64,000 bases of DNA from Candidatus Buchananbacteria bacterium (GCA_041664165.1 JBAYLH010000003.1:3247-67246); one strand, 5' to 3'. Shown: positions 11,596 through 55,789, counted from the first letter of the stretch. The notes: generated by a model from the sequence alone, not told the origin. A program made the numbers and translations.

Positions 11596-12684
11596 TTAAG
11601 TTAGTTTATTATTCGAATTCTGCTTGGCCGCTAGCGGTTTGCCATTTTTTAATCCCGAATTGCTAAAAATATCTTTAATAATGACGCTGATAACAATTGT
11701 AATTGGGATAACCAAAATTATTCCTACGATGCCGGCAATTTTAGCACCAATTAACATGACGATAATCGTCACAATCGGATTTATTCCAACCTGCCTTTTC
11801 ATTACTTGAGGCACAATCACATTATTCTCCAATTGCTGAATCACAATATATAGGATTAAAACGCCAATCCCCCGCCAAATTGAAAAGTCCGGAACCGTAA
11901 AACCTAAAAAAACAGCGGGAATCGCTCCCAGGATTGGACCAACATAAGGAATGATTTCAGTAACACCGGCAACCAAAGCTAAAACTAAGGCATACTTTGG
12001 TAAAAAATAAAGCAAGCCGACAAAAGACAAAAAACCAATAATAAAACTGAGAATCAACTGCCCCCTGGCCCAGTCACCAACCTTTTTGGCGACAACCGAA
12101 AAAACGCCAACTAAATAATCATGATAACGGCTCGGCGCAATCACTTGAAAAAAGTCATGAACTAGATTTTTTTCAATCAACAAATAAAAAGTGATAACCA
12201 AAATAAAAATTAAATTAATTAAATTACTAAAAAGATAAACTGTAACTGAATATAAGCCAGAAGCGGCTCGCTGTAAGCCAGCTTGCCAAACCTGTAAATT
12301 TTGCTGAATATTGCTAACAAAATTCTGCTCCTGGGCATACTGGCTAAAACTACTGAAATTTTCCGCCATTTTTTCCCAAAGATAAGGAAAATTAACCGTC
12401 AATAATGACACTTGTTCGGCAATCGGCGGAATTATCAATCGAACTGCTAAAACTATGAACAAAAGCAAAATAACATAAACTAAAACAACCCCTAAAAATC
12501 GGGGTACTCGATATTTCTCTAAAAAGCTGACAACTGGTTCAATCAAAGCGGCGAAAATAATCGCCAAAAAAACCATCAAAATAATATCGCGGATGAAATA
12601 GGCGAAAAACAAAAGCAGCAAAATTCCGACAACTTTCAAAATTGTAACCGTCGAAATATTAATTGTCAGATTTTTGTTTTCCAT
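11596..12684 (-). CDS. AI-2E family transporter (UPF0118/PerM-like)
   Basis: 362 aa polytopic protein. N-terminal region ...FFAYFIRDIILMVFLAIIFAALIEPVVSFLEK and overall topology match the AI-2E family. Confidence 0.75.
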   Translation of the reverse strand: MENKNLTINISTVTILKVVGILLLLFFAYFIRDIILMVFLAIIFAALIEPVVSFLEKYRVPRFLGVVLVYVILLLFIVLAVRLIIPPIAEQVSLLTVNFPYLWEKMAENFSSFSQYAQEQNFVSNIQQNLQVWQAGLQRAASGLYSVTVYLFSNLINLIFILVITFYLLIEKNLVHDFFQVIAPSRYHDYLVGVFSVVAKKVGDWARGQLILSFIIGFLSFVGLLYFLPKYALVLALVAGVTEIIPYVGPILGAIPAVFLGFTVPDFSIWRGIGVLILYIVIQQLENNVIVPQVMKRQVGINPIVTIIVMLIGAKIAGIVGIILVIPITIVISVIIKDIFSNSGLKNGKPLAAKQNSNNKLT

Positions 12685-12846: not shown

Positions 12847-13299
12847 ATGCCAACGCTGTCAACCAATAAAAAAGCTTTAAGCGATTATCAGGTTCTAGAA
12901 AAACTGGAAGCGGGAATTGTTTTGTCAGGCGCGGAAGTAAAATCAGTCAAAAACGGCCAAATCAACCTCAAAGGCAGCTATGTTACGATTAATAACCAGG
13001 GCGAAGCCTGGTTAATCGGCGCCCATATTTCCGCTTATAAAGCCGCCAGCGCCGGCCGAGCGACTTATCAGCCAGACAAAAGCCGCAAGCTTTTACTACA
13101 CCAAAAAGAAATTGATTACCTTTTAGGCAAAACCAAAGAAAAAGGCTTGACAATTATGCCTATTTCTGTATATACTAAAGGCAGTCTGATAAAACTCAAC
13201 ATCAGTTTAGTTAGGGGCAAAAAGCTCTACGACAAGCGGGAAAGCATTAAAAAGCGCGAAATAGACCGCCAAATCCGCCAAAAATTGAAAAGATTCTAG
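12847..13299 (+). CDS. smpB: SsrA-binding protein SmpB
   Basis: 150 aa. Motifs SGAEVKSVKNGQINLKGSYV..AWLIGAHISAY..KLLLHQKEIDYLLG are SmpB hallmarks. An extended -10 promoter (TGcTATACT) lies upstream. Confidence 0.9.
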   Translation: MPTLSTNKKALSDYQVLEKLEAGIVLSGAEVKSVKNGQINLKGSYVTINNQGEAWLIGAHISAYKAASAGRATYQPDKSRKLLLHQKEIDYLLGKTKEKGLTIMPISVYTKGSLIKLNISLVRGKKLYDKRESIKKREIDRQIRQKLKRF

Positions 13300-13386
13300 A
13301 TCCGAAGCTCTAAATCCGAAACCAACTATTTTCGAATTTAAAGTTTGGGATTTCCCCAAAATTTGCCAGCCAAATTTTGGGGCCAA

Positions 13387-13839
13387 GGGGATGTTTAAAA
13401 ATCGATAGAATCCAAATTTAAAGTTCTCAGATCAAGCATTGAAAATTTGGCTTGTTAATCTCAAATTTTCACCATGATAAGTGCCAAATCACTTGTCGCT
13501 CGAGTAAAAAGTGCTTTCAGTACTTTTGCTCTAGCACCCGTAATGGCCTAAAACCCATTACCATCAGCCCGGCGATACCTAATAACCGGTCACCCGCTTC
13601 GACTCGCGTCGAACTAGGTGCGCCCGCTAAGTCCTAACCGATGAAGCGAGGCGAGCTGGTGTCATAAATTAGGCACGGCAAATTAGTGTCTCACTGACTT
13701 GCTTAAACACCCGAGACTTTGGTTTTAAAGACTTTTGTTAATTTTATACTTTAAAACCGAAACAAAAAAATTGACTACACCTGTAAACCAACTTTGAATT
13801 TCTTTCTAGACAGGGGTGCAATTCCCCTCATCTCCACCA
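13387..13839 (+). ncRNA. ssrA: tmRNA (ssrA), putative
   Basis: It sits immediately downstream of smpB in a 780-bp non-coding gap. The 5' GGGGATG pairs with the 3' CATCTCC-ACCA as a 7-bp acceptor stem that includes the alanine-identity G3:U70 wobble. The T-arm is AGGGG-tgcaatt-CCCCT. CCA is encoded. A helix-2a-like pairing links AAATTTAAAG (13416-13425) with CTTTGAATTT. The hairpin GTAATGG-cctaaaac-CCATTAC places a TAA in its loop, as expected for the tag stop codon. Confidence 0.55.
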
Positions 13840-14629: not shown

Positions 14630-14776
14630 TTTTTGCAATTTTTGCAGCTCAAGCTGTTTTTTAATTAACGCGATACTAATCTACCAATTCATACGAATTT
14701 ACTAATATTCGTAGATTAGTATAATTCGCTCACCTCGCTTCGCTCCGGCGAAGCGGGCAGATTAGCATTATACTCT

Positions 14777-15371: not shown

Positions 15372-15413
15372 TTAGCAATTAAAAAAACTAAATACACAAA
15401 AAAGTTCCAAAGC

Positions 15414-15487
15414 GGAGGCGTAGCTCAGTTGGTTAGAGCGTCTGCCTGTCACGCAGAAGGTCGTGGGTTCGAGCCCCATCGTCTCCG
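15414..15487 (+). tRNA. tRNA-Asp (anticodon GTC)
   Basis: The cloverleaf folds by hand: acceptor GGAGGCG/CGTCTCC, D-arm GCTC-AGTTGGTTA-GAGC, anticodon loop CTGTCAC, T-arm GTGGG-TTCGAGC-CCCAT, discriminator G. CCA is not encoded. Confidence 0.9.
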
Positions 15488-15512
15488 CTTTGGAACTTTT
15501 TTAATTCTTATA

Positions 15513-15754
15513 AGGGCGAAGGCTCAGTTGGTTAGAGCGTCTGCCTGCGCGCCCCGCTTCAATTCAAATAACTAAACTAATCTTTAAAAAATTTGCGAGC
15601 CACAGGCGACTCCGCGCCAGCTAAAAAAATCTTTCGCCAAAAGCACATCGCGAAATTGAGGCGGGGTCACGCAGACCCGCCCGAACAACGGTGATATATT
15701 TAAGTCGTTCAGTCGGGCGGGAGGTCGAGGGTTAGAATCCCATCGTCCCCGCCA
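15513..15754 (+). tRNA. second tRNA-Asp-like copy interrupted by two insertions (intron-containing tRNA or pseudogene)
   Basis: 15522-15547 is identical to positions 10-34 of the adjacent tRNA-Asp (through CTG of the anticodon loop). TCACGCAGA (the rest of the anticodon arm) reappears at 15668-15676, after a ~120-nt insert that ends in G. The variable loop, T-arm and acceptor 3' strand, with encoded CCA, are at 15721-15754. A further ~45-nt hairpin insert (CCCGCCCGAAC...GTTCAGTCGGGCGGG) lies between them. The 5' acceptor strand does not pair well with the 3' strand, and the T-stem has an A:A mismatch. Confidence 0.4.
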
Positions 15755-46494: not shown

Positions 46495-48888
46495 TTATCT
46501 GCTCTTGAGCCGCTTTTCTTCGGCTAATATATCTAAAGTCGTTTTGATTACGGTATCGGGATTGAGCGAAATACTATCAATTCCCTGCTTGACCAAAAAC
46601 CGGGCAAAGTCGGGAAAATCCGACGGCGCCTGGCCGCAAATGCCGATTTTGCAATTTTTCTTTTTGGCAATTTTGATTACTTGGCTGATTAATTTTTTCA
46701 CCGCTTCGTTTCGTTCATTATAAACATGGGCGACCAAAGCCGAATCGCGGTCAACGCCCAAAGTTAACTGAGTCAAATCGTTAGAACCGATGGAAAACCC
46801 GTCAAAAATTTCGGCAAACTCTTCGGCTAAAATCACGTTGGACGGAATTTCACACATGACATAAATCTCGAGATTGTCTTTACCCTGCTTCAAACCGTTT
46901 TTAGCCATGATGGCAATCACCTTTTTGCCTTCTTCAGCTGTCCGGCAAAACGGCACCATGATTTTGATATTTTTAAAGCCCATGACTTCGCGGGCTTTTA
47001 GCATGGCCTGGCATTCCAAAACGAAAGCCTTTTGGTAATTTTCCGAATAATAGCGCGAAGCGCCCCGCCAGCCGATCATCGGATTTGATTCAACCGGTTC
47101 AAATTCCTTGCCGCCGATTAAATTGGCATATTCGTTTGATTTGAAATCCGACAGCCGGACAATGACATCTTTGGGATAAAACGCCGCGGCAATCTGAGCC
47201 ACGCCTTCGGCCAGCTTATCAATAAAATACCCCGACTTGTCGTGATAGCCAAAAGTAATTTCGGCAATTTGTTTTTTGGCCTTTTTATCTTTTAACTTTT
47301 GAAAATTAAGCAGCGCTAAGGGATGGATTTTGATGTGTTCGTTAATGATAAATTCTTCCCTTGCCAAGCCGCAGCCGTCGTTAGGAATAAATGACGAGGC
47401 GAAAGCGACATCCGGCGAACCGACATTCATCATAATTTTAGTCTTCGGCCGCTTGATGCTTTTTAAATTAGTCTTTTTAATTTTAAACGGTAAGCTGCCG
47501 TCATAAACAAACCCGGTTTCACCTTCGGCGCAAGAAATCGTTAAGTGCCTGCCGGTCTTAATTTGTTTGGTGGCCGTTTCCGTCCCGACCACGCAAGGAA
47601 TGCCCAGCTCGCGGGAAACAATGGCGGCGTGGCAAGTCCGGCCGCCTTTATTGGTTACGATGCCGGCGGCAATTTTCATAATCGGTTCCCAGTCGGGGTC
47701 AGTCATGTCGGTGACCAATATTTCACCCGCTTTGAATTTTTTAATTTCCGAGGCACCGGAAATCACGTTGGCAACGCCAGAGGCAATTTTAGTACCCACG
47801 GGCGAACCGGTCGCAATTACCTTACCCCTTTTAACCAGCTGGTATTCTTCTAAAACTTTGACTTCTTTGTTGCCAAAAACGGTTTCGGGTCGGGCCTGGA
47901 GGATAAAAAGTTTTTTCGTCCGGCCGTCTTTAGCCCATTCAATATCCATCGGTTTGCCGTAATGCTTTTCAATTAAAATCCCCCACGCCGCCAGTTTCAA
48001 AATTTCTTTATCAGTTAAAACATACTTTTGCTGAGCCGTTTTGGTGGTTTTAATATTTTTCGTGGTTTTGCCATTTTCAACGGTATAAATCATCTTAATT
48101 TTTTTGCTGCCTAATTTTTTGGCAATAATCGGTTTAAAACCGTCAGCCAAAGTATCTTTAAAAATATAAAATTCATCAGTGTTGACCGTACCCTGGACGA
48201 TATTTTCGCCCAAGCCCCAAGAGCCGGAAATTAAAATAGTTTTTTCAAAACCAGTCTCGGTGTCAATGGTAAACATCACGCCGGACGAAGCTAAATCGGA
48301 CCGAACCATTTTTTGAACGCCGATTGACAGGCCGACTTTAAAATGATCAAAGCCTTTGTCAACTCGGTAAGAAATCGCCCGATTGGTAAAAAGCGAGGCT
48401 AAGCAATGGCGGCAAGCGTTGATTAAATCCGCTTCGCCACGGATATTCAAAAAACTTTCCTGTTGCCCGGCAAAAGACGCATCGGGCAAATCTTCGGCCG
48501 TGGCGGAAGACCGAACCGCGACGTCAACGCGGCGGCCGTATTGATGTTCCAGCTTCCGATAAGCGGCAGTTATCTGATTGCTTAAATCTTTGGGCAATTC
48601 CGCGTTTAAAATCAGCTCCCGAATCTGCCGGCCGCGGCTTTCCAGATTAACCATGTCTTTAGTGTTTAAATCCTGCAGCGCTTTTCGGATTTGCTTCATC
48701 AAGCCGGACTTTTTCAATAAATAAAAATAGGCTTGCGCGGTTACGGCAAAGCCATTAGGAATACTGACTCCCTGCGGAGCCAGCTTTTGGTACATTTCTC
48801 CCAGCGACGCATTTTTTCCGCCGACTTTGGGAATGTCTTTGATGGTCAATTCCTTAAACCACAAGATGAACTTTTTTTTGAATGGCAT
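46495..48888 (-). CDS. ppsA: phosphoenolpyruvate synthase (pyruvate, water dikinase)
   Basis: 797 aa. The N-terminus ...IKDIPKVGGKNASLGEMYQKL..GVSIPNGFAVTAQAYFYLL is the PEP-utilising-enzyme nucleotide-binding signature. The central phospho-His domain (GGRTCHAAIVSRELGIPCVVG) and a C-terminal TIM-barrel domain follow. Confidence 0.85.
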   Translation of the reverse strand: MPFKKKFILWFKELTIKDIPKVGGKNASLGEMYQKLAPQGVSIPNGFAVTAQAYFYLLKKSGLMKQIRKALQDLNTKDMVNLESRGRQIRELILNAELPKDLSNQITAAYRKLEHQYGRRVDVAVRSSATAEDLPDASFAGQQESFLNIRGEADLINACRHCLASLFTNRAISYRVDKGFDHFKVGLSIGVQKMVRSDLASSGVMFTIDTETGFEKTILISGSWGLGENIVQGTVNTDEFYIFKDTLADGFKPIIAKKLGSKKIKMIYTVENGKTTKNIKTTKTAQQKYVLTDKEILKLAAWGILIEKHYGKPMDIEWAKDGRTKKLFILQARPETVFGNKEVKVLEEYQLVKRGKVIATGSPVGTKIASGVANVISGASEIKKFKAGEILVTDMTDPDWEPIMKIAAGIVTNKGGRTCHAAIVSRELGIPCVVGTETATKQIKTGRHLTISCAEGETGFVYDGSLPFKIKKTNLKSIKRPKTKIMMNVGSPDVAFASSFIPNDGCGLAREEFIINEHIKIHPLALLNFQKLKDKKAKKQIAEITFGYHDKSGYFIDKLAEGVAQIAAAFYPKDVIVRLSDFKSNEYANLIGGKEFEPVESNPMIGWRGASRYYSENYQKAFVLECQAMLKAREVMGFKNIKIMVPFCRTAEEGKKVIAIMAKNGLKQGKDNLEIYVMCEIPSNVILAEEFAEIFDGFSIGSNDLTQLTLGVDRDSALVAHVYNERNEAVKKLISQVIKIAKKKNCKIGICGQAPSDFPDFARFLVKQGIDSISLNPDTVIKTTLDILAEEKRLKSR

Positions 48889-48911
48889 ACTTAGTAATTA
48901 GGAAGTTAGTC

Positions 48912-49010
48912 CCGCACCTATTTTACTGATTACCATTAAGCTTAAAAAATATTTTATTTAATAAAAAGTTTGATTTCAATTATAGATTGATTAATAAAAT
49001 AGGTGCGGGA
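48912..49010. promoter_or_regulatory. 19-bp perfect inverted repeat TAGTCCCGCACCTATTTTA ... TAAAATAGGTGCGGGACTA between pyk and ppsA
   Basis: The arms are at 48912-48930 and 48992-49010, separated by ~60 nt of AT-rich sequence. They share the core CACCTATTTT/AAAATAGGTG with the hairpin upstream of groES. Confidence 0.6.
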
Positions 49011-50498
49011 CTAAATCGTTTCCACTTTAACCAAATTGGTCTGGCCCAAAAAGCCAAAAGGATGGCCCGCGGCGATAACCACAATATCGCCTTTGCTAAC
49101 CAGCCGCTTGCTGATTAACAAATTCTTAATTTTAGCCATTAAGTCATTAAACGAGGAAACAAAAGGCAGATAATAGGAATTGACGCCCCAGCTTAAGCAA
49201 AGCTGATTTTTGGTTTTTTCCGAAGCCGCCAGCGCGACTACGGTGATATTGGGTCGGTATTTGGCAATTGACCGGGCGGTGAAACCGGAAGTCGTGGCGC
49301 AGACAATCAATTTGGCGCCAGTCTCGGCGGCAATTTTTTCCACCGCAAAGCTGACCGTTTCGGTAATTCCGCCGATTTTTTTTAAGCTATTTTCAATTTG
49401 CTGATGCTCTTCAATTTCGGTTTTTTCCACTTCATTGGCGATCCGCGTCATCACTTGCACCGCCTTGAGCGGGTACTTGCCGGTGGCGGTTTCCCCTGAA
49501 AGCATGATCGCGTCCGTGCCGTCTAAAATCGCGTTAGCCACGTCGGAAACTTCCGCCCGGGTTGGCACCGGATAGCGGATCATTGAATCAAGCATTTGCG
49601 TCGCAACAATGACCGGTTTGGCTTCCTGAACGCAGCGCCGGACAATTTTTTTCTGAATTAATGGCAAATCCTCCAGCGGAATTTCCAAACCCAAATCGCC
49701 GCGCGCTACCATAATGCCGTCGGCCACTTTCAAAATTTCTTCAAAATGAGCCACCGCTTCCGCCCGCTCGATTTTGGCAATGACTTTGGTCTGAGTTATC
49801 GGCACGCTCCCGCCGCGGTTGGGCTTTTTGAAATCTTTGTCTTTGCGGCCGAGCCTTGATTCAAGCCGGTGAATATTTTTTTTCAATTCGATAATATCCG
49901 ATTCATCTTTGACAAAAGACAGGGCAATAAAATCAACTCCTTGTTTTAAGCCGAACCTCAAGTCTTCCATGTCTTTTTGAGTTACCGGTTTGGCTTTAAT
50001 TTCCGACTTCGGAAAATTCATTCCTTTGTGGGCATAAATAATATCGCCAATTTTAACTTTGCAGCGAATCGCTTTATTTTTTATCGCAACTACCTCCAAT
50101 TCAATTTTGGCATCATCAATTAAAACCGGATTGCCGGGTTTTAAATCACGGTACAAACCGGGGTATTGAATCGGAATGAAAGCTGAAACATCTTTGAGGG
50201 AAATCCGAAAATTTTCCGGCACCAAATAGATAAACTCGCCGGCTTCGACTTTAATGCCTTCGGCGGCAATGTTGCCGGTGCGAATCCGCGGCCCCTGCAA
50301 ATCCTGCAAAATAGCGACCGGCTGGCCGGTTTTAGCCGCTACCTTTCTGAGATTATTAATCAGCAAGGTATGGTGTTTGTAAGTGCCATGGGAAAAATTA
50401 AGCCGGGCAACATTAAGCCCGGATTTAACCATCAGTTCGATTTTACTTTTGGTCTCCGAGGCCGGACCGATCGTGCAGACGATTTTGGTTCTTTTCAT
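49011..50498 (-). CDS. pyk: pyruvate kinase
   Basis: 495 aa. MKRTKIVCTIGPAS...NVARLNFSHG...QDLQGPRIRTG is canonical. Confidence 0.9.
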   Translation of the reverse strand: MKRTKIVCTIGPASETKSKIELMVKSGLNVARLNFSHGTYKHHTLLINNLRKVAAKTGQPVAILQDLQGPRIRTGNIAAEGIKVEAGEFIYLVPENFRISLKDVSAFIPIQYPGLYRDLKPGNPVLIDDAKIELEVVAIKNKAIRCKVKIGDIIYAHKGMNFPKSEIKAKPVTQKDMEDLRFGLKQGVDFIALSFVKDESDIIELKKNIHRLESRLGRKDKDFKKPNRGGSVPITQTKVIAKIERAEAVAHFEEILKVADGIMVARGDLGLEIPLEDLPLIQKKIVRRCVQEAKPVIVATQMLDSMIRYPVPTRAEVSDVANAILDGTDAIMLSGETATGKYPLKAVQVMTRIANEVEKTEIEEHQQIENSLKKIGGITETVSFAVEKIAAETGAKLIVCATTSGFTARSIAKYRPNITVVALAASEKTKNQLCLSWGVNSYYLPFVSSFNDLMAKIKNLLISKRLVSKGDIVVIAAGHPFGFLGQTNLVKVETI

Positions 50499-50532
50499 AG
50501 TAAATTAAGTCAAGATAAACCCAGATAAAGTC

Positions 50533-50595
50533 AAGATAAAGTCAAGATAGGAAGTTCTTATCTGGACTTTATCTGGGCTTACTCACTTTATCTTG
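50533..50595. promoter_or_regulatory. array of direct and inverted AGTCAAGATAA-like motifs upstream of pyk
   Basis: Three direct copies (agtcaagataa) precede inverted copies (cttatctggact, ttatctgggct, ttatcttggct). Together they form the palindrome CCCAGATAAAGTC...GACTTTATCTGGG. Confidence 0.55.
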
Positions 50596-50599
50596 GCTG

Positions 50600-50923
50600 T
50601 TATAATTTTAGCGTTTTAATAATCCAATCGCCAAAAGACTTCGCCCAAACGCCGACAACCGGCAACTCCCACTTTTCTCCCTGCAAGGCTTTGATGATAC
50701 CAACGATCGCGGCGACACCGACTAAGACATTTAAAAACCAGCCTAAGACCGGAATAAAGCAAAAGACGACGGAGATCACAAAGAGCAAAGCGCCCTGGCT
50801 GGCGTGAAACTTAACAAATTCATTGTCTTTGCGCGCGGCTAAAGCGACTAAGCTTAAAATCCAAAGGTAGCCAACGGCCGCCCAGATCTTTTTTTCCTGC
50901 GGGTTAATTTTTGTTTCCGTCAT
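50600..50923 (-). CDS. DUF4870-like small membrane protein
   Basis: 107 aa. IWAAVGYLWILSLVALAARKDNEFVKFHASQGALLF fits the DUF4870 pattern. Confidence 0.5.
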   Translation of the reverse strand: MTETKINPQEKKIWAAVGYLWILSLVALAARKDNEFVKFHASQGALLFVISVVFCFIPVLGWFLNVLVGVAAIVGIIKALQGEKWELPVVGVWAKSFGDWIIKTLKL

Positions 50924-51047
50924 AAGTTTGGTGTTAGTTATTAGGGATTAGGTTTTAGGTGTTAGTAATTTAGGTTTATTATACCACAAAAACCAATTGA
51001 CAGCCAACAAAAAAAGAAGCTCTTTCAACTTCTAGTTTACTCAAGCT

Positions 51048-51482
51048 TCAAACAGCCTCCAAACCGATGCGGCCCATTCGGCCGACTTCGGCGACTCTAA
51101 CCACCATGAGATCACCAACGGTAAAGGGTGTCTTCGGGTAACGGGAATAATGCAAAAGGCCTTCATGACCATGAACAGTCAAGGCCAGAAAAGTACCAAA
51201 GTTCAGATCCCTGGCAACCAAGCCAAGAAAAATCTCACCTTCTCCGACCGTTTTACCAAAGTTATTCTCTAGCCATTTGGCCAGCCGTTGGCCGTATGCT
51301 TCATCCGCGGAATAAACCCGAAACGCCCCATGAGACTGGATAATGATGATTGCCTCAAGCGGACAACAGATGATCGTTCTTGGCTTTCCCTTCAGGAACT
51401 TCTGTACTTGTTCTGCTTCCAATTGGCCATCAGTTTTTATTGGCCGCCACGGTTTCTTTTCCCTTTGGTTTGGTCTTGTCAT
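51048..51482 (-). CDS. hypothetical protein
   Basis: 144 aa. No confident family. Confidence 0.3.
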   Translation of the reverse strand: MTRPNQREKKPWRPIKTDGQLEAEQVQKFLKGKPRTIICCPLEAIIIIQSHGAFRVYSADEAYGQRLAKWLENNFGKTVGEGEIFLGLVARDLNFGTFLALTVHGHEGLLHYSRYPKTPFTVGDLMVVRVAEVGRMGRIGLEAV

Positions 51483-51623
51483 TACTTTGCCTCCTAGTTA
51501 AACAGCAACTTTACCAAAACATATCAATCTAATCAAAATTTAACAACAAAGTCAAGCCTAAACTGAATGCTAAAACAAAGCCGAGGCGTGAAAGCCTCGG
51601 CGATGATTTTAAAAACAATTTAC

Positions 51624-52535
51624 TTATGATGATACCTTTTTCGACTGATCCCAGATTACGACAAACTGGCTTTTCATCATTTCAGCTAGCTCTGAACTTT
51701 CCACTAAAAATCCAAAGTTTTCTCGACTGGAAGAAATAAATCTGACCGTATTGCCATAAATTGAATAACCTAAAGTAAAATCAATACCCACGGGTGCAAT
51801 CCGCACTTCTCTTTTTAAATTTTGGCTGGCTAGTAAAAATGGATATTTTTTTAAATCCGGGATTTGGGCTTTGGGCCAAATTACTTTTAAGCTAATATTT
51901 TGCTCCAGTCGTTTTTGATGAAATTCTTTGATAAAATCTGACCCTAAAAGTCCCAGCATTTTTTTAATCGGCCAATACGCGAAGACGGTAATATCGCGAT
52001 AAAGCAGCATATCTTTCATCATTTGCCGCAGTTCTCTTTGGCCGTCAAAAAGCTGAAGTTTTGGCCGGAAAAAATTATCCTGGTTTTGTTGCATTTTTTT
52101 TAAACTTTCCAATTCTTCATTGGCGGCTAAAATCTCCTTTCGCTTTTCTTCAACCAAAAGTTGGATTTTCTCAACTGACGATGCAACAAAAAACTTGGCA
52201 CCTCCTTTTAAAGTTTCGCTCACTAAACCAACTTCAATCAGATGCTTAAGTAAATCATAAACCGAAGTCCGGCTGATACTGGCTTGTTTGGCTAATTGGC
52301 TGGCGCTCATCGGACCACTGGCAAAAAGCTGGCTGAACAGATTAGCCTCAATTGGCCTTAGATTAAACAAAGCTAAAAGTTTATTGGGTTTCATAGAATT
52401 TCCTAAGTGTCGTCGGATTTTCACGACATAGTTTACAATACTCCCCTTTTGATGCAAAGTCAAGAAAGAAAGAAGGAAGGAGGGCAAGATGCTCCTTACA
52501 ACCGATAAGGGAGGTAATGTAATGTCAAAACTCAA
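51624..52535 (-). CDS. TrmB-like transcriptional regulator (N-terminal winged HTH plus C-terminal effector domain)
   Basis: 303 aa. LFASGPMSASQLAKQASISRTSVYDLLKHLIEVGLV is a wHTH. The coiled-coil linker and ~200-aa C-terminal domain resemble TrmB. Confidence 0.5.
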   Translation of the reverse strand: MSFDITLPPLSVVRSILPSFLLSFLTLHQKGSIVNYVVKIRRHLGNSMKPNKLLALFNLRPIEANLFSQLFASGPMSASQLAKQASISRTSVYDLLKHLIEVGLVSETLKGGAKFFVASSVEKIQLLVEEKRKEILAANEELESLKKMQQNQDNFFRPKLQLFDGQRELRQMMKDMLLYRDITVFAYWPIKKMLGLLGSDFIKEFHQKRLEQNISLKVIWPKAQIPDLKKYPFLLASQNLKREVRIAPVGIDFTLGYSIYGNTVRFISSSRENFGFLVESSELAEMMKSQFVVIWDQSKKVSS

Positions 52536-53082
52536 TCAAAAAAGTTGGGGTGTCAAGTTTGAATATGATATGAAAAGCCTAGGAGATTACACTCATTGCG
52601 CATATGAGTCCTGCGGTTATCATCAAAAAACTGGATTTATTAGTTGTATCGTAGGCTACTATAAAGACTCTAACTTATTGGTAGTCAGGTGTCCGGCCTG
52701 CTCGCGGCACTCTACGGTACACGGGTTAGAAGGGGCTTTCCATCTCCTTGAGTCAAATGCTGGCACCAGACAATTTGAGAAAGAAGCGGCCTTGAGATGG
52801 CTAAGATACCCTGAGACCTACGAAGCAATGCGTCAGTGCATCGAAGAAATACTCAAGGAATATGAAAACCTGCTTAGGCCTTACTTAGAAAGGCTCAAGT
52901 CTAAGTTGGGTCATATCCCAGAAGTTAACTTTGACTCTTCCTGGAATTTGGGCGATGAACGACTTGATTGTATGTCCACGGCCAATAACCTTGAAATGTT
53001 ACAAGGCATTTTGGAGATCTCTGACTCAGAGGCAGAAGAGATAAGAAGAAAGGTAACGAAAGAGCTAATGACAAAAGCCTGA
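52489..53082 (+). CDS. hypothetical Cys-cluster protein
   Basis: 197 aa with CxxC...CPAC motifs. A convergent terminator hairpin follows. Confidence 0.35.
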   Translation: MLLTTDKGGNVMSKLNQKSWGVKFEYDMKSLGDYTHCAYESCGYHQKTGFISCIVGYYKDSNLLVVRCPACSRHSTVHGLEGAFHLLESNAGTRQFEKEAALRWLRYPETYEAMRQCIEEILKEYENLLRPYLERLKSKLGHIPEVNFDSSWNLGDERLDCMSTANNLEMLQGILEISDSEAEEIRRKVTKELMTKA

Positions 53083-53202
53083 CTCGAAGCCGAAATAATA
53101 ACCCTCGGCTTCTTTTTTTATTACTATTACCGAAAGCCGAGGCAACTTGCCTCGGCTTCAATATTCGTAGATTCGGATTTATTAGTAAATTCGCATCGCG
53201 CT

Positions 53203-54858
53203 TTACATCATGCCCATGCCGCCCATACCCGGATTCATCCCGCCGTGGTCATGGCCTTCTTTTTCCGGCAAATCAGTGACCAAAGCTTCCATGGTAATCA
53301 AGGTCGTGGCAATTGAAGAAGCGTTCTCCAAGGCCGTTCTGGTAACTTTCATCGGATCGACAATCCCCGCCTCCAACATATCAACTTTTTTCATCGTGTT
53401 GAAGTCATAACCGGAATTGGCGTCATTAATTTCTTTAATTTCATTTAAAATCAAGGAAATATCTTTCAAGCCGGCGTTAGCCGCGATTTGGCGTAATGGC
53501 GCCGTTAAGGCCTGCTGGATAATTTTCGCGCCGACTTTTTCGTCATCGGTTAATTCAACTTTATATTCTTTGAGTAAATCATTCAAAGCATTGGCGACTT
53601 TGACTAAGGCCGCGCCGCCTCCCGGGACAATTCCTTCGGCCACGGCGGCCTTGGTCGCGTTGAGTGCGTCTTCAATTTTGAATTTCTTTTCTTTCATTTC
53701 CGTTTCCGTCGCCGCGCCGACTTTGATGACGCCGACCCCGCCGGAAAGTTTCGCCAGTCTTTCCACTAATTTTTCTTTATCAAATTCCGAATCGGATTTG
53801 GCAATTTCATTTTTGATTTGAGCCACCCGCGCTTCAATCTTTTTCTTGTCGCCTTTGCCGTCAATAATCGTCGTGTATTCTTTGGTCGCAACCACTTTTC
53901 TGGCCTGGCCTAGCTGTTCAATTTCCGTTTTTTCCAGTTTTAAACCTAAATCTTCGGAAATTACCGTACCGCCGGTCAAAGCCGCGATATCATTTAGCAT
54001 TTCTTTGCGGCGGTCGCCAAAGCCCGGAGCTTTAACGCCCAAGACATTAAAAGTACCGCGGAGTTTATTAACCACAAAAGTGGCTAAAGCTTCGCCTTCA
54101 ATTTCATCGCCGATAATTACCAGCTCTTTTTTGCCGCTTTGGGCGATTTTTTCCAAAAGCGGTAAAATATCGCGAACAGCGGAAATTTTTTGGTCGGTAA
54201 TTAAAATGTAAGGTTCTTCAAAATCCGCTTCCATCCGTTCGGGATTGGTAACCATGTAGGCGGAAACAAAACCTTTGTCAAACCGCATGCCCTGAACCAC
54301 TTCTTTTTGCAAGCCGAAAGTCGGGCTTTCTTCAACTGTTACCACGCCGTCTTTGCCGACTTCGGTCATAATGTCGGCAATCATCTGGCCGACTTCCGGG
54401 TCTAGCGAAGAAATCGTCGCGACTTGGGCGACTTCTTTTTGATCCTTAATTGGCCGGGTAATTTTTTTCAAGCCTTCAATAACGACTTTGACGGTTTTTT
54501 GAATTCCGGTTTTCAAAGCTACCGGATCGGTACCGGCCGCCACGTTTTTCAAGCCCTCTTCAATAATCGCCTGGGCCAAAACCGTCGCGGTCGTAGTGCC
54601 GTCGCCGGCAACGTCATTGGTTTTTTCCGCCACTTCCTTGATCAAAGAAGCGCCGATATTTTCAAATTTGTCTTCCAATTCGATTTCTTTGGCAATCGTC
54701 ACGCCGTCGTTAGTAATTATCGGCGAACCAAAGCCTTTGTCCAAAACCACGTTTCGGCCTTTCGGGCCCAAACTGACTTTAACGGCATCGGCGACCTGGT
54801 CGATCCCCTTTTTGACCGCCGCACGAGCCTTTTCATTAAAAAGTAATTGTTTTGCCAT
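53203..54858 (-). CDS. groL: chaperonin GroEL
   Basis: 551 aa. [27 protein letters not shown], the [11 protein letters not shown] motif and a C-terminal GGM repeat tail. Confidence 0.95.
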
Positions 54859-54971
54859 ATAATTTTGATTATTTATTAATTTAAGTTGTGTGTTTGATTC
54901 TAATCTACAAATTATGGATGCGAATCTGCGAATATTTGTAGATTCGGATGTATTCGTAGATTAGTATTGCG

Positions 54972-55247
54972 CTATTCAATGACGGCTAAAACGTCTTCGT
55001 CGCTTAAAATTTTGTATTCCTGGTCATCGACTTTGACTTCTTCCCCGGCATATTTGCCGAAAATTACTTTGTCGCCGGTTTTTAAACCCAGCTTAGTGAT
55101 TTTTTCGCCGTCGCCGATGGCCAAAACTTTGCCTTCCGCTTTTTTTTCTTTATCAATGGTGTCCGGCAAGATAATGCCGGATTTAGTGGTTTCTTCTTCG
55201 CTTAAAGCTTCAACCACGATTCTGTTGCCCAAGGGTTTTAGTTTCAT
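54972..55247 (-). CDS. groS: co-chaperonin GroES
   Basis: 91 aa. MKLKPLGNRIVVE...GIILPD...GKVLAIGDG. Confidence 0.95.
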   Translation of the reverse strand: MKLKPLGNRIVVEALSEEETTKSGIILPDTIDKEKKAEGKVLAIGDGEKITKLGLKTGDKVIFGKYAGEEVKVDDQEYKILSDEDVLAVIE

Positions 55248-55336
55248 ACTTTTTATCTCCTTATTTTTATCCGCGCAGGCGACCCTTTATGGATCACCGA
55301 ACCCCAAAAAGTCCAGCTACGCGAAATGTTTATTAA

Positions 55337-55399
55337 TTAACCCCCACACCTATTTTTTTATATATTCTACACCGTCTAAAAAATAGGTGTGGGGGTTAA
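55337..55399. promoter_or_regulatory. 22-bp inverted repeat TTAACCCCCACACCTATTTTTT...AAAAAATAGGTGTGGGGGTTAA in the groES leader
   Basis: A perfect stem with a ~20-nt loop, located between CIRCE and the groES start. Its core CACCTATTTT/AAAATAGGTG is shared with the pyk-ppsA inverted repeat. Confidence 0.6.
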
Positions 55400-55400
55400 A

Positions 55401-55427
55401 CTAGCACTCCATAATTCAGAGTGCTAA
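55401..55427 (-). promoter_or_regulatory. CIRCE operator (HrcA binding site) for groES-groEL
   Basis: CTAGCACTC-N9-GAGTGCTAA matches the consensus TTAGCACTC-N9-GAGTGCTAA (one mismatch). It lies ~155 bp upstream of groES. Confidence 0.85.
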
Positions 55428-55604
55428 TGATACTTTATCTTAGAAAATTTTACCCCGCCTGTCAACCCTTGACAAAATAGACAATTTATGCCAAACTTAC
55501 ACGAATGCTCTTACCTACCCTCATTATTTGGTTAACCCTAATTGGCAAATAAACCATAGTTGCTAGCTAGGGATAACCAAGAATTAACGGGAGGACTAGG
55601 CACG

Positions 55605-55691
55605 ATGAAAAGAATTATAGTAGCATTGGTACTAATCATACTGGCGGCTATTGCTGGCTGGTTGGCTGCTGGCAGAGTCGACCTAACGTAG
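55605..55691 (+). CDS. small hydrophobic peptide (28 aa) with strong SD and own terminator
   Basis: GGGAGG lies 10 nt upstream of ATG. The peptide is MKRIIVALVLIILAAIAGWLAAGRVDLT*. A rho-independent terminator (CCGCCAATCT...AGATTGGCGG + T-run) is at 55727-55775. Confidence 0.4.
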   Translation: MKRIIVALVLIILAAIAGWLAAGRVDLT

Positions 55692-55789
55692 ATCCTCGCA
55701 GCAATAGCCTGCTCACACAACTTAAACCGCCAATCTGAAACCAAACGGTGTAAGATTGGCGGCTTTTTCTTTTTTGGCAAAACTTAAAT

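Follow-up and report, generated by a model that had tools for sequence, protein, structure and literature searches.

Two long perfect inverted repeats, IR1 and IR2, are located in intergenic regions of a 64,000-nt stretch of DNA from Candidatus Buchananbacteria bacterium (GCA_041664165.1 JBAYLH010000003.1:3247-67246; the whole stretch is called the window below), one between the genes pyk and ppsA and the other in the leader of groES. Both repeats are probably non-autonomous copies, devoid of any gene, of a palindromic and widely dispersed selfish element, which in its full-length form carries a GIY-YIG nuclease gene in the loop of the hairpin. This reading is based on conserved arms with a swappable interior, occurrence at many unrelated sites including 23S rRNA helices, presence or absence of the hairpins between relatives, 4-5 bp repeats next to some copies, and a copy produced by internal deletion. 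An earlier note on this DNA had ascribed the core shared by the two repeats to a common operator or RNA structure of a stress- or carbon-responsive regulator. The regulatory reading of the shared motif is not supported, and in this respect the motif is a false lead that marks no groES/ppsA regulon.

IR1 and IR2 are the two longest inverted repeats of the window, and their coordinates, arms and common core (Table 1) are confirmed, with small corrections to the distances between the arms. IR1 has perfect arms of 19 nt, as described earlier, with an AT-rich spacer of 69 nt; if two mismatches are allowed, the arms extend to 25 nt (48906-48930 and 48990-49014) with 59 nt between them, so the previously reported value of about 60 nt depends on the definition of the arms. 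The 22-nt arms of IR2 are perfect as well, the loop being 19 nt rather than 20 nt. IR1 occupies the spacer between pyk and ppsA, two minus-strand genes; its outer arm includes TAG (49011-49013), the stop codon of pyk, and the ATG of ppsA is at 48886-48888. IR2 is located on the minus strand between the CIRCE element and the groES ATG at 55247. As a promoter-like site and CIRCE are upstream of IR2, the latter is within the transcribed 5' leader of groES, which folds as three hairpins in series, namely CIRCE, IR2 and a third, species-specific one. The identity of pyk, ppsA, groES and groEL is confirmed by Pfam. The sequence of the repeats is identical in four independent assemblies of the same species, and hence they are not an assembly artefact.

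Both repeats contain CCC-N-CACCTATTTT, which is longer than a 10-mer and absent elsewhere in the window, and the exact matches to the 14-mer CCCNCACCTATTTT in the window are the four arms only. The alignment of the arms runs past the core recognized earlier (TTAGTCCCG-CACCTATTTTA versus TTAACCCCCACACCTATTTTTT). The hairpin pattern CACCTATTTT-N-AAAATAGGTG has four matches in the window (two sites, each on both strands) versus 0.00 in shuffled sequences. Both repeats are far more stable in folding than their shuffles, with energies of -36.8 kcal/mol (z = -8.9) for IR1 and -33.8 kcal/mol (z = -6.6) for IR2.

The association with a nuclease emerged from longer arm pairs, and not from the search for neighbouring genes. 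These longer pairs enclose a small open reading frame (ORF), and in at least nine elements perfect arms tightly surround an ORF of 77-85 aa, at a distance of a few nucleotides. PF01541 was found in all tested ORFs (77-93 aa, E-values from 1e-12 to 1e-17), which consist of the GIY-YIG catalytic domain only. The arms of these elements (Table 1; collected loci are designated by L numbers) have a common signature, CCC-N(1-2)-CAC(C) followed by AT-rich sequence, that is also seen in IR1 (TCCCGCACCTATTTT) and IR2 (CCCCCACACCTATTTT); in particular, the arm CCCGCACCTATTTT from L165 is the same as the IR1 arm over 14 nt. Moreover, one ORF-less hairpin in L165 still has, at either side, the sub-terminal sequence seen in the full-length copies, and thus represents an internal-deletion derivative. 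A protein search returned hundreds of homologues of approximately 84-86 aa, mostly from genomes of the candidate phyla radiation (CPR). No NCBIfam family scored above its cut-off for the ORFs, and the PDB search retrieved only two NMR structures of UPF0213. A six-frame hmmsearch found no GIY-YIG ORF in the window or in L001-L008 (same-species and relative loci), so IR1 and IR2 would be non-autonomous, passenger copies.

Some small GIY-YIG genes are enclosed not by the hairpin arms but by duplicated segments of a tRNA gene, which gives the impression of an insertion into or next to a tRNA (L176:700-1100, L266:2370-2760, L213:3270-3620). These genes may represent a second insertion mode of the same nuclease family, and they might be linked to the partial tRNA copy observed in the window (see below).

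The earlier suggestion that the two hairpins are related, rather than being coincidental terminators, holds true: they have a 14-nt signature in common, and the sequence family that includes both has hundreds of members elsewhere. In the scan of metagenomes, only the 10-nt core was forced, as an inverted pair, and species genomes were scanned separately. At least 121 distinct elements were found in metagenomes; among the matches listed, 68 of the 121 have at least four further complementary nucleotides outside the core, 77 have C in position -4, and pairing at positions -1 to -5 is seen in 72-78% of them, with pairs of variable identity. Single metagenome-assembled genomes (MAGs) contain from 9 to more than 30 copies among the matches listed, with about 30 or more in a Desulfurellales MAG, while the species-genome scan gave at least about ten copies in a 'Gammaproteobacteria' MAG, at least about nine in a Planctomycetia MAG, and at least three in one Buchananbacteria genome. 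The hosts among the matches listed are Patescibacteria, Planctomycetota, Omnitrophota, Cloacimonadota, Desulfurellales, Pirellulales, Sedimentisphaerales, Treponema, Saccharibacteria and many Parcubacteria-type lineages. A recurring size class, found in other Patescibacteria and in other MAGs, has an interior of approximately 72 nt that can be aligned to the interior of IR1. The complete scan of viral contigs served as a control: its 36 matches, almost all without stem extension and none with the CCC signature, are chance background, and hence the family belongs to cellular genomes.

Outside rRNA loci, 109 of 130 hairpins among the matches listed do not overlap long reading frames, and of the 104 that have a converging or upstream ORF end, 44 are at most 60 nt away from the 3' end of a long ORF. 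Several hairpins of the family are located between convergent genes, and many are found just after stop codons. All-against-all BLAST of ORFs near the metagenome hairpins revealed no transposase as a recurrent neighbour, and no convincing case of a transposase between two arms separated by 400-4000 bp came to light. Literature searches with the core and arm sequences as text retrieved unrelated primers only and no description of the arms.

In the Planctomycetia MAG CAZQVU01 (L148, L163, L183, L198, L207, L214, L233, L240) the repeat unit is about 270 nt, far larger than the central hairpin, with an extra small hairpin on each side, whose stem sequence varies between copies yet remains paired. 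At least three cargos are observed in the central loop, that is, the 94-nt type A, type B in L217 and the GIY-YIG gene in L233. In the Desulfurellales MAG CAZFWO01 (L133-L242, about 30 copies) approximately six recurring types of outer flanks are combined in different pairs, and the 38-nt interior occurs in both orientations for the same flank pair (e.g. A-C: three forward, one reverse).

A further group of metagenome matches, with GC content 0.5-0.69, has the structure AAAATAGGGACAG-N-CACCTATTTT...AAAATAGGTG-N-CTGTCCCTATTTT and is often found between convergent genes (L019, L035, L041, L054, L064, L073, L074, L079, L082, L111, L112, L117, L118, L121). Each arm of this high-GC family is a small palindrome itself (AAAATAGG / CCTATTTT), the whole resembling a two-way terminator; some contigs have two copies, with a nested copy in L111, and no GIY-YIG gene was seen nearby. 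This family was not relied on for the interpretation of IR1 and IR2.

Hairpins of the family are also found inside 23S rRNA genes in at least eight loci. An inserted stem-loop at an rRNA helix tip is observed in L165, L180, L159, L068, L058, L199, L030, L107 and L010. The large-subunit rRNA of L165 is 3548 nt long versus 2925 nt in the Rfam model, the excess being three family elements, one of them at the helix-25 position, the classical site of intervening sequences; in L180 an element stands in place of helix 25. IR1 and IR2 are located between protein-coding genes and not in rRNA. According to the accessible sections of a survey of CPR rRNA genes (Tsurumaki et al., J Bacteriol 2024, PMC11270868), GIY-YIG ORFs occur there in rRNA insertions other than group I/II introns, and classical intervening-sequence sites are occupied by numerous uncharacterised insertions that are short and have no ORF; these sections mention neither conserved arms nor dispersed intergenic copies. 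The similarity to rRNA intervening sequences is that the family members replace or extend 23S helices, including helix 25, and the differences are the location of the window copies outside rRNA and the fact that cutting by RNase III is, for the hairpin family, only presumed by analogy.

By its GroEL, the source organism falls into Patescibacteria, close to Candidatus Buchananbacteria. The comparison of three relatives (L005, L006 and L007/L008, with GroEL identity of 87-92%) is consistent with mobility of the hairpins. The full gene order, Wzy-groES-groEL-...-TrmB-...-pyk-ppsA-lgt, is retained in all three, while the conservation upstream of groES and ppsA, expected if the motif were regulatory, is not observed. 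IR2 is absent from the groES leaders of L005 and L006, the two closest syntenic relatives, where the distance from CIRCE to the ATG is about 38 nt; in L007/L008 the left arm TTTATCCCCACACCTAATTTTTT is recognisable after CIRCE, and the right one has degenerated with no compensating changes. IR1 is absent from the pyk-ppsA spacer of every relative, and these spacers contain quite different species-specific hairpins or word repeats. Copies of the IR1 type are found elsewhere in the relatives. One of them in L005 (L005:2996-3086), with U-tracts after the hairpin on both strands, is located between convergent genes by the gene of a LysM peptidase, with no counterpart in the window, and one in the metagenomic relative L124 lies between homologues of the window genes 11596-12684 and 12847-13299. 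Presence and absence at the same sites, together with copies at other sites, is a pattern of insertion rather than of an operator. CIRCE itself is intact, conserved in the relatives and separate from IR2, whose sequence does not match TTAGCACTC-N9-GAGTGCTAA.

Several other features were seen at these loci. The third strong hairpin of the groES leader (55264-55322), situated in the stretch from IR2 to the ribosome-binding site, is lacking in all relatives, and no similar sequence was found in any collected locus. The groES leader of the source species is about 150 nt longer than those of the relatives and ends in the canonical AAGGAG, and there is no Shine-Dalgarno sequence ahead of groES in the relatives. 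A gene for a TrmB-family transcription regulator (51624-52535) is located between groEL and pyk and retains this position in all syntenic relatives, with or without the hairpins; it is plausible that this regulator controls pyk and ppsA in a sugar-responsive way, independently of the hairpins. The intergenic hairpins 50516-50581 in the window, L005:17654-17767 and L007:16335-16403 consist of short repeated words, which are wholly different at the same position (GATAAAGTCAA repeats in the window, TAAATTGTTA in L005, and four copies of TAGCTTG in L007), and this suggests fast turnover of word-built intergenic hairpins in the lineage.

Signs of insertion were also found in the flanks of the family copies. 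Among the matches listed, direct repeats of at least 4 bp at one fixed offset just outside the CCCC termini are present in 17 of 143 hairpins versus approximately 0.6 expected by chance. About ten of the 17 are non-palindromic (CAAG in L012 and L213, TTCG, CTTTG, GTATA, TATAA, CGAGA, TAAA), and more non-palindromic repeats are found at neighbouring offsets (TTGA, TTTAC and three more TAAA); the other seven (six ACGT and one TTAA) are self-complementary and indistinguishable from stem extension. If IR1 and one TA were removed, pyk would end in TAA, followed by a spacer of 17 nt to ppsA.

Several observations weigh against the interpretation of IR1 and IR2 as copies of a selfish element. Their own flanks, TA in IR1 and TTAA in IR2, are palindromic and cannot be told from stem extension, and most copies of the family have no clear target duplication. 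No full-length copy was found in the sequence of the source species or in the approximately 20-kb stretches of the close relatives, and only two copies of the family are present in the 64-kb window. The interiors of the ORF-less copies are often unrelated to the nuclease gene, and the stem could be a landing pad for different cargos rather than the end of one transposon. Some matches, e.g. high-GC AAAATAGGGACAG-N-CACC, may belong to unrelated families sharing only the searched core, and the counts from metagenomes and species genomes are lower bounds from arbitrary sampling. Finally, we know of no mechanism by which a GIY-YIG nuclease would generate 4-5 bp duplications.

Four other explanations were considered. 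A shared operator or regulatory RNA, responding to heat, stress or carbon and acting at the groES leader and upstream of ppsA, would agree with the presence of the same 14-nt motif by two stress or carbon genes, with the TrmB-family regulator gene between the two sites and with the promoter-like site flanked by the IR1 arms. It is nevertheless very improbable and for the most part already refuted, since syntenic relatives retain the regulator gene, CIRCE and both targets without conserving the hairpins at either locus, the arm in L007 has decayed without compensation, and many phyla have this hairpin in unrelated contexts, rRNA genes among them; in addition, perfect arms of 19-22 bp far exceed operator half-sites, and there is no match in Rfam. 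The promoter-like sequence inside IR1, which faces ppsA, also suggests an inverton, the arms being recombination sites and the flipping interior switching ppsA on and off, and the interior found in both orientations relative to the same flank types in the Desulfurellales MAG would fit this scheme. We give it marginally less credit than the operator: the loop of IR2 is only 19 nt, 69 bp is a very small length for inversion by a recombinase, the four independent assemblies agree in the orientation of the IR1 interior, no recombinase is associated, and the promoter-like side of other IR1-type copies is not consistently turned towards the start of a gene.

The least probable explanation, which we regard as refuted, is that two independent terminators or attenuators look alike by chance in an AT-rich, hairpin-rich genome. 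The window indeed has other long intergenic hairpins of unrelated sequence (50516-50581 and 54897-54967), and the pyk-ppsA spacers of the relatives have different species-specific ones, but the shared 14-mer is in the same register in both stems and nowhere else in the window, and both hairpins match an external family that is defined by positions not forced in the search and by the association with the nuclease gene. Domestication by the host, with the repeats now functioning as terminators, mRNA stabilisers, RNase III sites or targets of an Ssn-like nuclease restricting incoming single-stranded DNA (ssDNA), as NTS and SsnA do in Neisseria, is unlikely, without being as remote as the other three. 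Such a role would be in line with the mostly intergenic position of the hairpins and their proximity to gene 3' ends (see the counts above), their location between convergent genes, the U-tracts on both strands after some copies, such as that in L005, and the precedent of Ssn/SRM (PMC11893778). Against it, U-tracts are lacking at both IR1 and IR2, neither of which is called terminator-like, IR2 is situated in a 5' leader rather than after a gene, the positions of the copies are not conserved between close relatives, and there is no nuclease gene in the window. Besides, domestication is compatible with a selfish origin, as it concerns the present function and not the identity of the repeats.

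Some more specific candidates were rejected. An integron attC site was dismissed, as no integrase is present, the stems have no mismatches and a single R-box-like heptamer is all that fits. An anti-Shine-Dalgarno mimic or translational hairpin was dismissed because AGGTG is 29 nt from the ATG of ppsA and near no start codon in IR2; in the L124 copy, AGGTG is 9 nt from a start codon. The interior of L239 resembles a Cas12a repeat, but the likeness is not conserved in sister copies. A promoter cassette has weak support: TT[CG]AA[AG]-17-[TA]A[TA]AA recurs in IR1-type interiors and faces a gene start in about three of five copies checked.

The described system closest to the proposed selfish element is Ssn/SRM (Chenal et al., Nat Commun 2025, PMC11893778), in which single-domain GIY-YIG nucleases of 94 aa cut ssDNA at hairpin repeats (NTS/SRM) that flank the nuclease gene and number in the hundreds. 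By analogy, the hairpin element appears to work like Ssn/SRM, though we do not assign it to that system. The similarities include a small single-domain GIY-YIG protein (94 aa in Neisseria versus 77-85 aa in the bracketed ORFs) and a layout similar to that of insertion sequences, with the gene flanked by the hairpin repeat on both sides and many gene-less copies in the genome. Further, the arms in their outer part, CCCCGC-ACCTATTTT...AAAATAGGT-GCGGGG, are similar to the SRM stem CCCCGC...GCGGGG. The bracketed ORFs are 43% identical to a GIY-YIG gene of Azospirillum that has four exact matches to the SRM motif around it; they score 34-54 bits against this SRM-flanked homologue and 27-37 bits against E. 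coli YhbQ/UPF0213. On the other hand, the nucleases of the hairpin family form their own cluster, and the SRM motif HGTCWYN(0-2)YYVSBRHN(0-5)WNVSBRGN(0-2)RNCYNB has no match anywhere in the window, IR1 and IR2 included, nor in the 300 nt around ten GIY-YIG elements, while the same expression finds the NTS test sequence and the four sites around the Azospirillum gene. The SRM repeats are separate 28-nt hairpins, whereas here two halves of one long hairpin have the gene, or a cargo of 15-75 nt, in the loop. The hosts are mainly Patescibacteria, Planctomycetota and other uncultured phyla versus Pseudomonadati, and copies of the hairpin family are found inside rRNA, while the text of PMC11893778 mentions neither rRNA nor Patescibacteria.

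Other known repeats show partial similarity. [quoted passage not shown] Unlike in MITEs, the longer partner with the same ends encodes a GIY-YIG nuclease instead of a DDE or other known transposase, putative target duplications of 4 or 5 bp are seen in a subset of copies only, and the arms stay paired while their sequence differs from copy to copy. Repetitive extragenic palindromes (REP/REPIN) with their RAYT genes are likewise short, often situated after genes, form long hairpins and are linked to one small repeat-flanked gene of nuclease type, but the enzyme family is different, and the arms studied here have neither the GTAG nor the CGTC tag. No HUH/Y1 transposase was found near the hairpins, GIY-YIG being the only recurrent neighbour gene. 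In Rfam, the window yields only the tmRNA and tRNA at the gathering score, and the E-value mode adds only sub-threshold matches to generic miRNA hairpins; the scan for intrinsic terminators called neither repeat (loops of 19 and 69 nt, no U-tract after the stems).

For the selfish element, a mechanism may be proposed by analogy. The nuclease would act in trans on the hairpin, probably in extruded or single-stranded form, as SsnA acts on NTS/SRM, and this action would drive copying or insertion. The long perfect stem may allow the insert to be tolerated in structured RNAs and leaders, and an RNase III-type cut may trim it out of transcripts, as in the case of rRNA intervening sequences; either of these would explain the survival of copies in rRNA and in a 5' leader. 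The effects of IR1 and IR2 on the neighbouring genes would then be incidental: IR2 adds a stem of -34 kcal/mol between CIRCE and the groES ribosome-binding site, and IR1 overlaps the stop codon of pyk and supplies a promoter-like sequence directed at ppsA. Judging from the sequence, an element landing in a leader or on a stop codon, as in the window, may rewire expression.

More tentatively, and with the balance rather against it, one may think of a previously undescribed class of selfish elements that crosses phyla, in which an Ssn-like GIY-YIG gene resides in the loop of its own hairpin and gene-less copies spread in a MITE-like manner with 4-5 bp duplications. The same element would be behind both the short and the GIY-YIG-encoding non-intron insertions in 23S rRNA of CPR and Planctomycetota, where it would be tolerated as a mimic or extension of a helix or trimmed by RNase III. 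If true, this would imply transposition or homing by a lone GIY-YIG nuclease of about 84 aa acting on hairpin DNA. More generally, the hairpin family connects three subjects treated separately in the literature searched, namely the Ssn nuclease/hairpin-repeat systems, the MITE-like intergenic palindromes of uncultured phyla and the puzzling non-intron insertions in CPR rRNA, both those with GIY-YIG and the short ones lacking an ORF. If the nuclease acts on its own hairpin, approximately 84 aa and arms of about 16 nt would make a compact pair, which may be a new way for DNA to move.

Table 1. Features of the two inverted repeats and their surroundings in the window, and arms bracketing GIY-YIG genes in other loci
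Feature	Location	Strand	Sequence	Remark
ppsA	46495-48888	minus		Pfam
IR1, promoter-distal arm	48907..48925 (imperfect to 48906-48930)		TAGTCCCGCACCTATTTTA	signature TCCCG-CACC-TATTTT
IR1, interior	48926..48994	minus		69 nt, AT-rich; aligns with the ~72-nt interiors of IR1-type copies elsewhere
Sigma70-like site inside IR1	48979..48951	minus	TTGAAA-17-TAAAAT	points at ppsA
IR1, pyk-proximal arm	48995..49013		TAAAATAGGTGCGGGACTA	holds the pyk stop codon TAG
pyk	49011-50498	minus		Pfam
groEL	53203-54858	minus		Pfam
groES	54972-55247	minus		Pfam
IR2, arm	55337..55358		TTAACCCCCACACCTATTTTTT	signature CCCCCA-CACC-TATTTT
IR2, loop	55359..55377			19 nt, too short for a gene or promoter
IR2, arm	55378..55399		AAAAAATAGGTGTGGGGGTTAA	TTAA on both sides of CCCCCA...TGGGGG
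CIRCE	55401..55427	minus	TTAGCACTC-N9-GAGTGCTAG	separate conserved HrcA-type operator directly upstream of IR2; context
groES promoter-like site	55437..55465	minus	TTGACA-17-TAAGAT	context
GIY-YIG-bracketing arm	L165, copy 1		CCCCGCACCTATTTTTG	
GIY-YIG-bracketing arm	L165, copy 2		TCCCGCACCTTTTTG	
GIY-YIG-bracketing arm	L180		TCCAGCACCTAATTCA	
GIY-YIG-bracketing arm	L233		CCCAGCACCTATTTTT	
GIY-YIG-bracketing arm	L213		CGCGCCCCCACACCAATTATGTT	
GIY-YIG-bracketing arm	L010 (two copies)		CCCAGCACTAACTTTGG	
GIY-YIG-bracketing arm	L246		TACCCGCACACTAACTTTCATTT	
GIY-YIG-bracketing arm	L256		ACCCCCACACCAAAT	
GIY-YIG-bracketing arm	L266		CACCCCCACACCTAATTGG	

Other features of the window were noted as well. 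The tRNA-Asp gene (15414-15488) is inside an inverted repeat of 23 nt with 96% complementarity (AAAAAAGTTCCAAAGCGGAGGCG / CGTCTCCGCTTTGGAACTTTTTT, 15398-15502), which lengthens the acceptor stem by about 14 bp into the leader and the trailer; CCA is not encoded. Approximately 30 nt downstream of it there is a tRNA-like 5' half, GGGCGAAGGCTCAGTTGGTTAGAGCGTCTGCCTG (15515-15560), not called by ARAGORN. The tmRNA gene (13387-13839, 98 bits in Rfam) directly follows an ORF of 150 aa (both within 12847-13839), which by its position is probably smpB; its homologue in L124 abuts the IR1-type hairpin.

A second family of shared hairpin words comprises the exact 16-mer ATTCGTAGATTAGTAT at 14707 and 54952 and the related word ATT[CT]GTAGATTCGGAT at 53166 and 54934. 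These words form hairpins after groEL (53166-53200), between groES and groEL (54897-54967) and near 14.7 kb (14673-14722), and contain GTAG, the tag of REP-type repeats. Finally, upstream of the groES promoter there is a 28-codon ORF on the plus strand (55606-55692), not called by gene callers in related contigs, that encodes the hydrophobic peptide MKRIIVALVLIILAAIAGWLAAGRVDLT; its ribosome-binding site is GGAGG, and a hairpin follows at 55724-55765.

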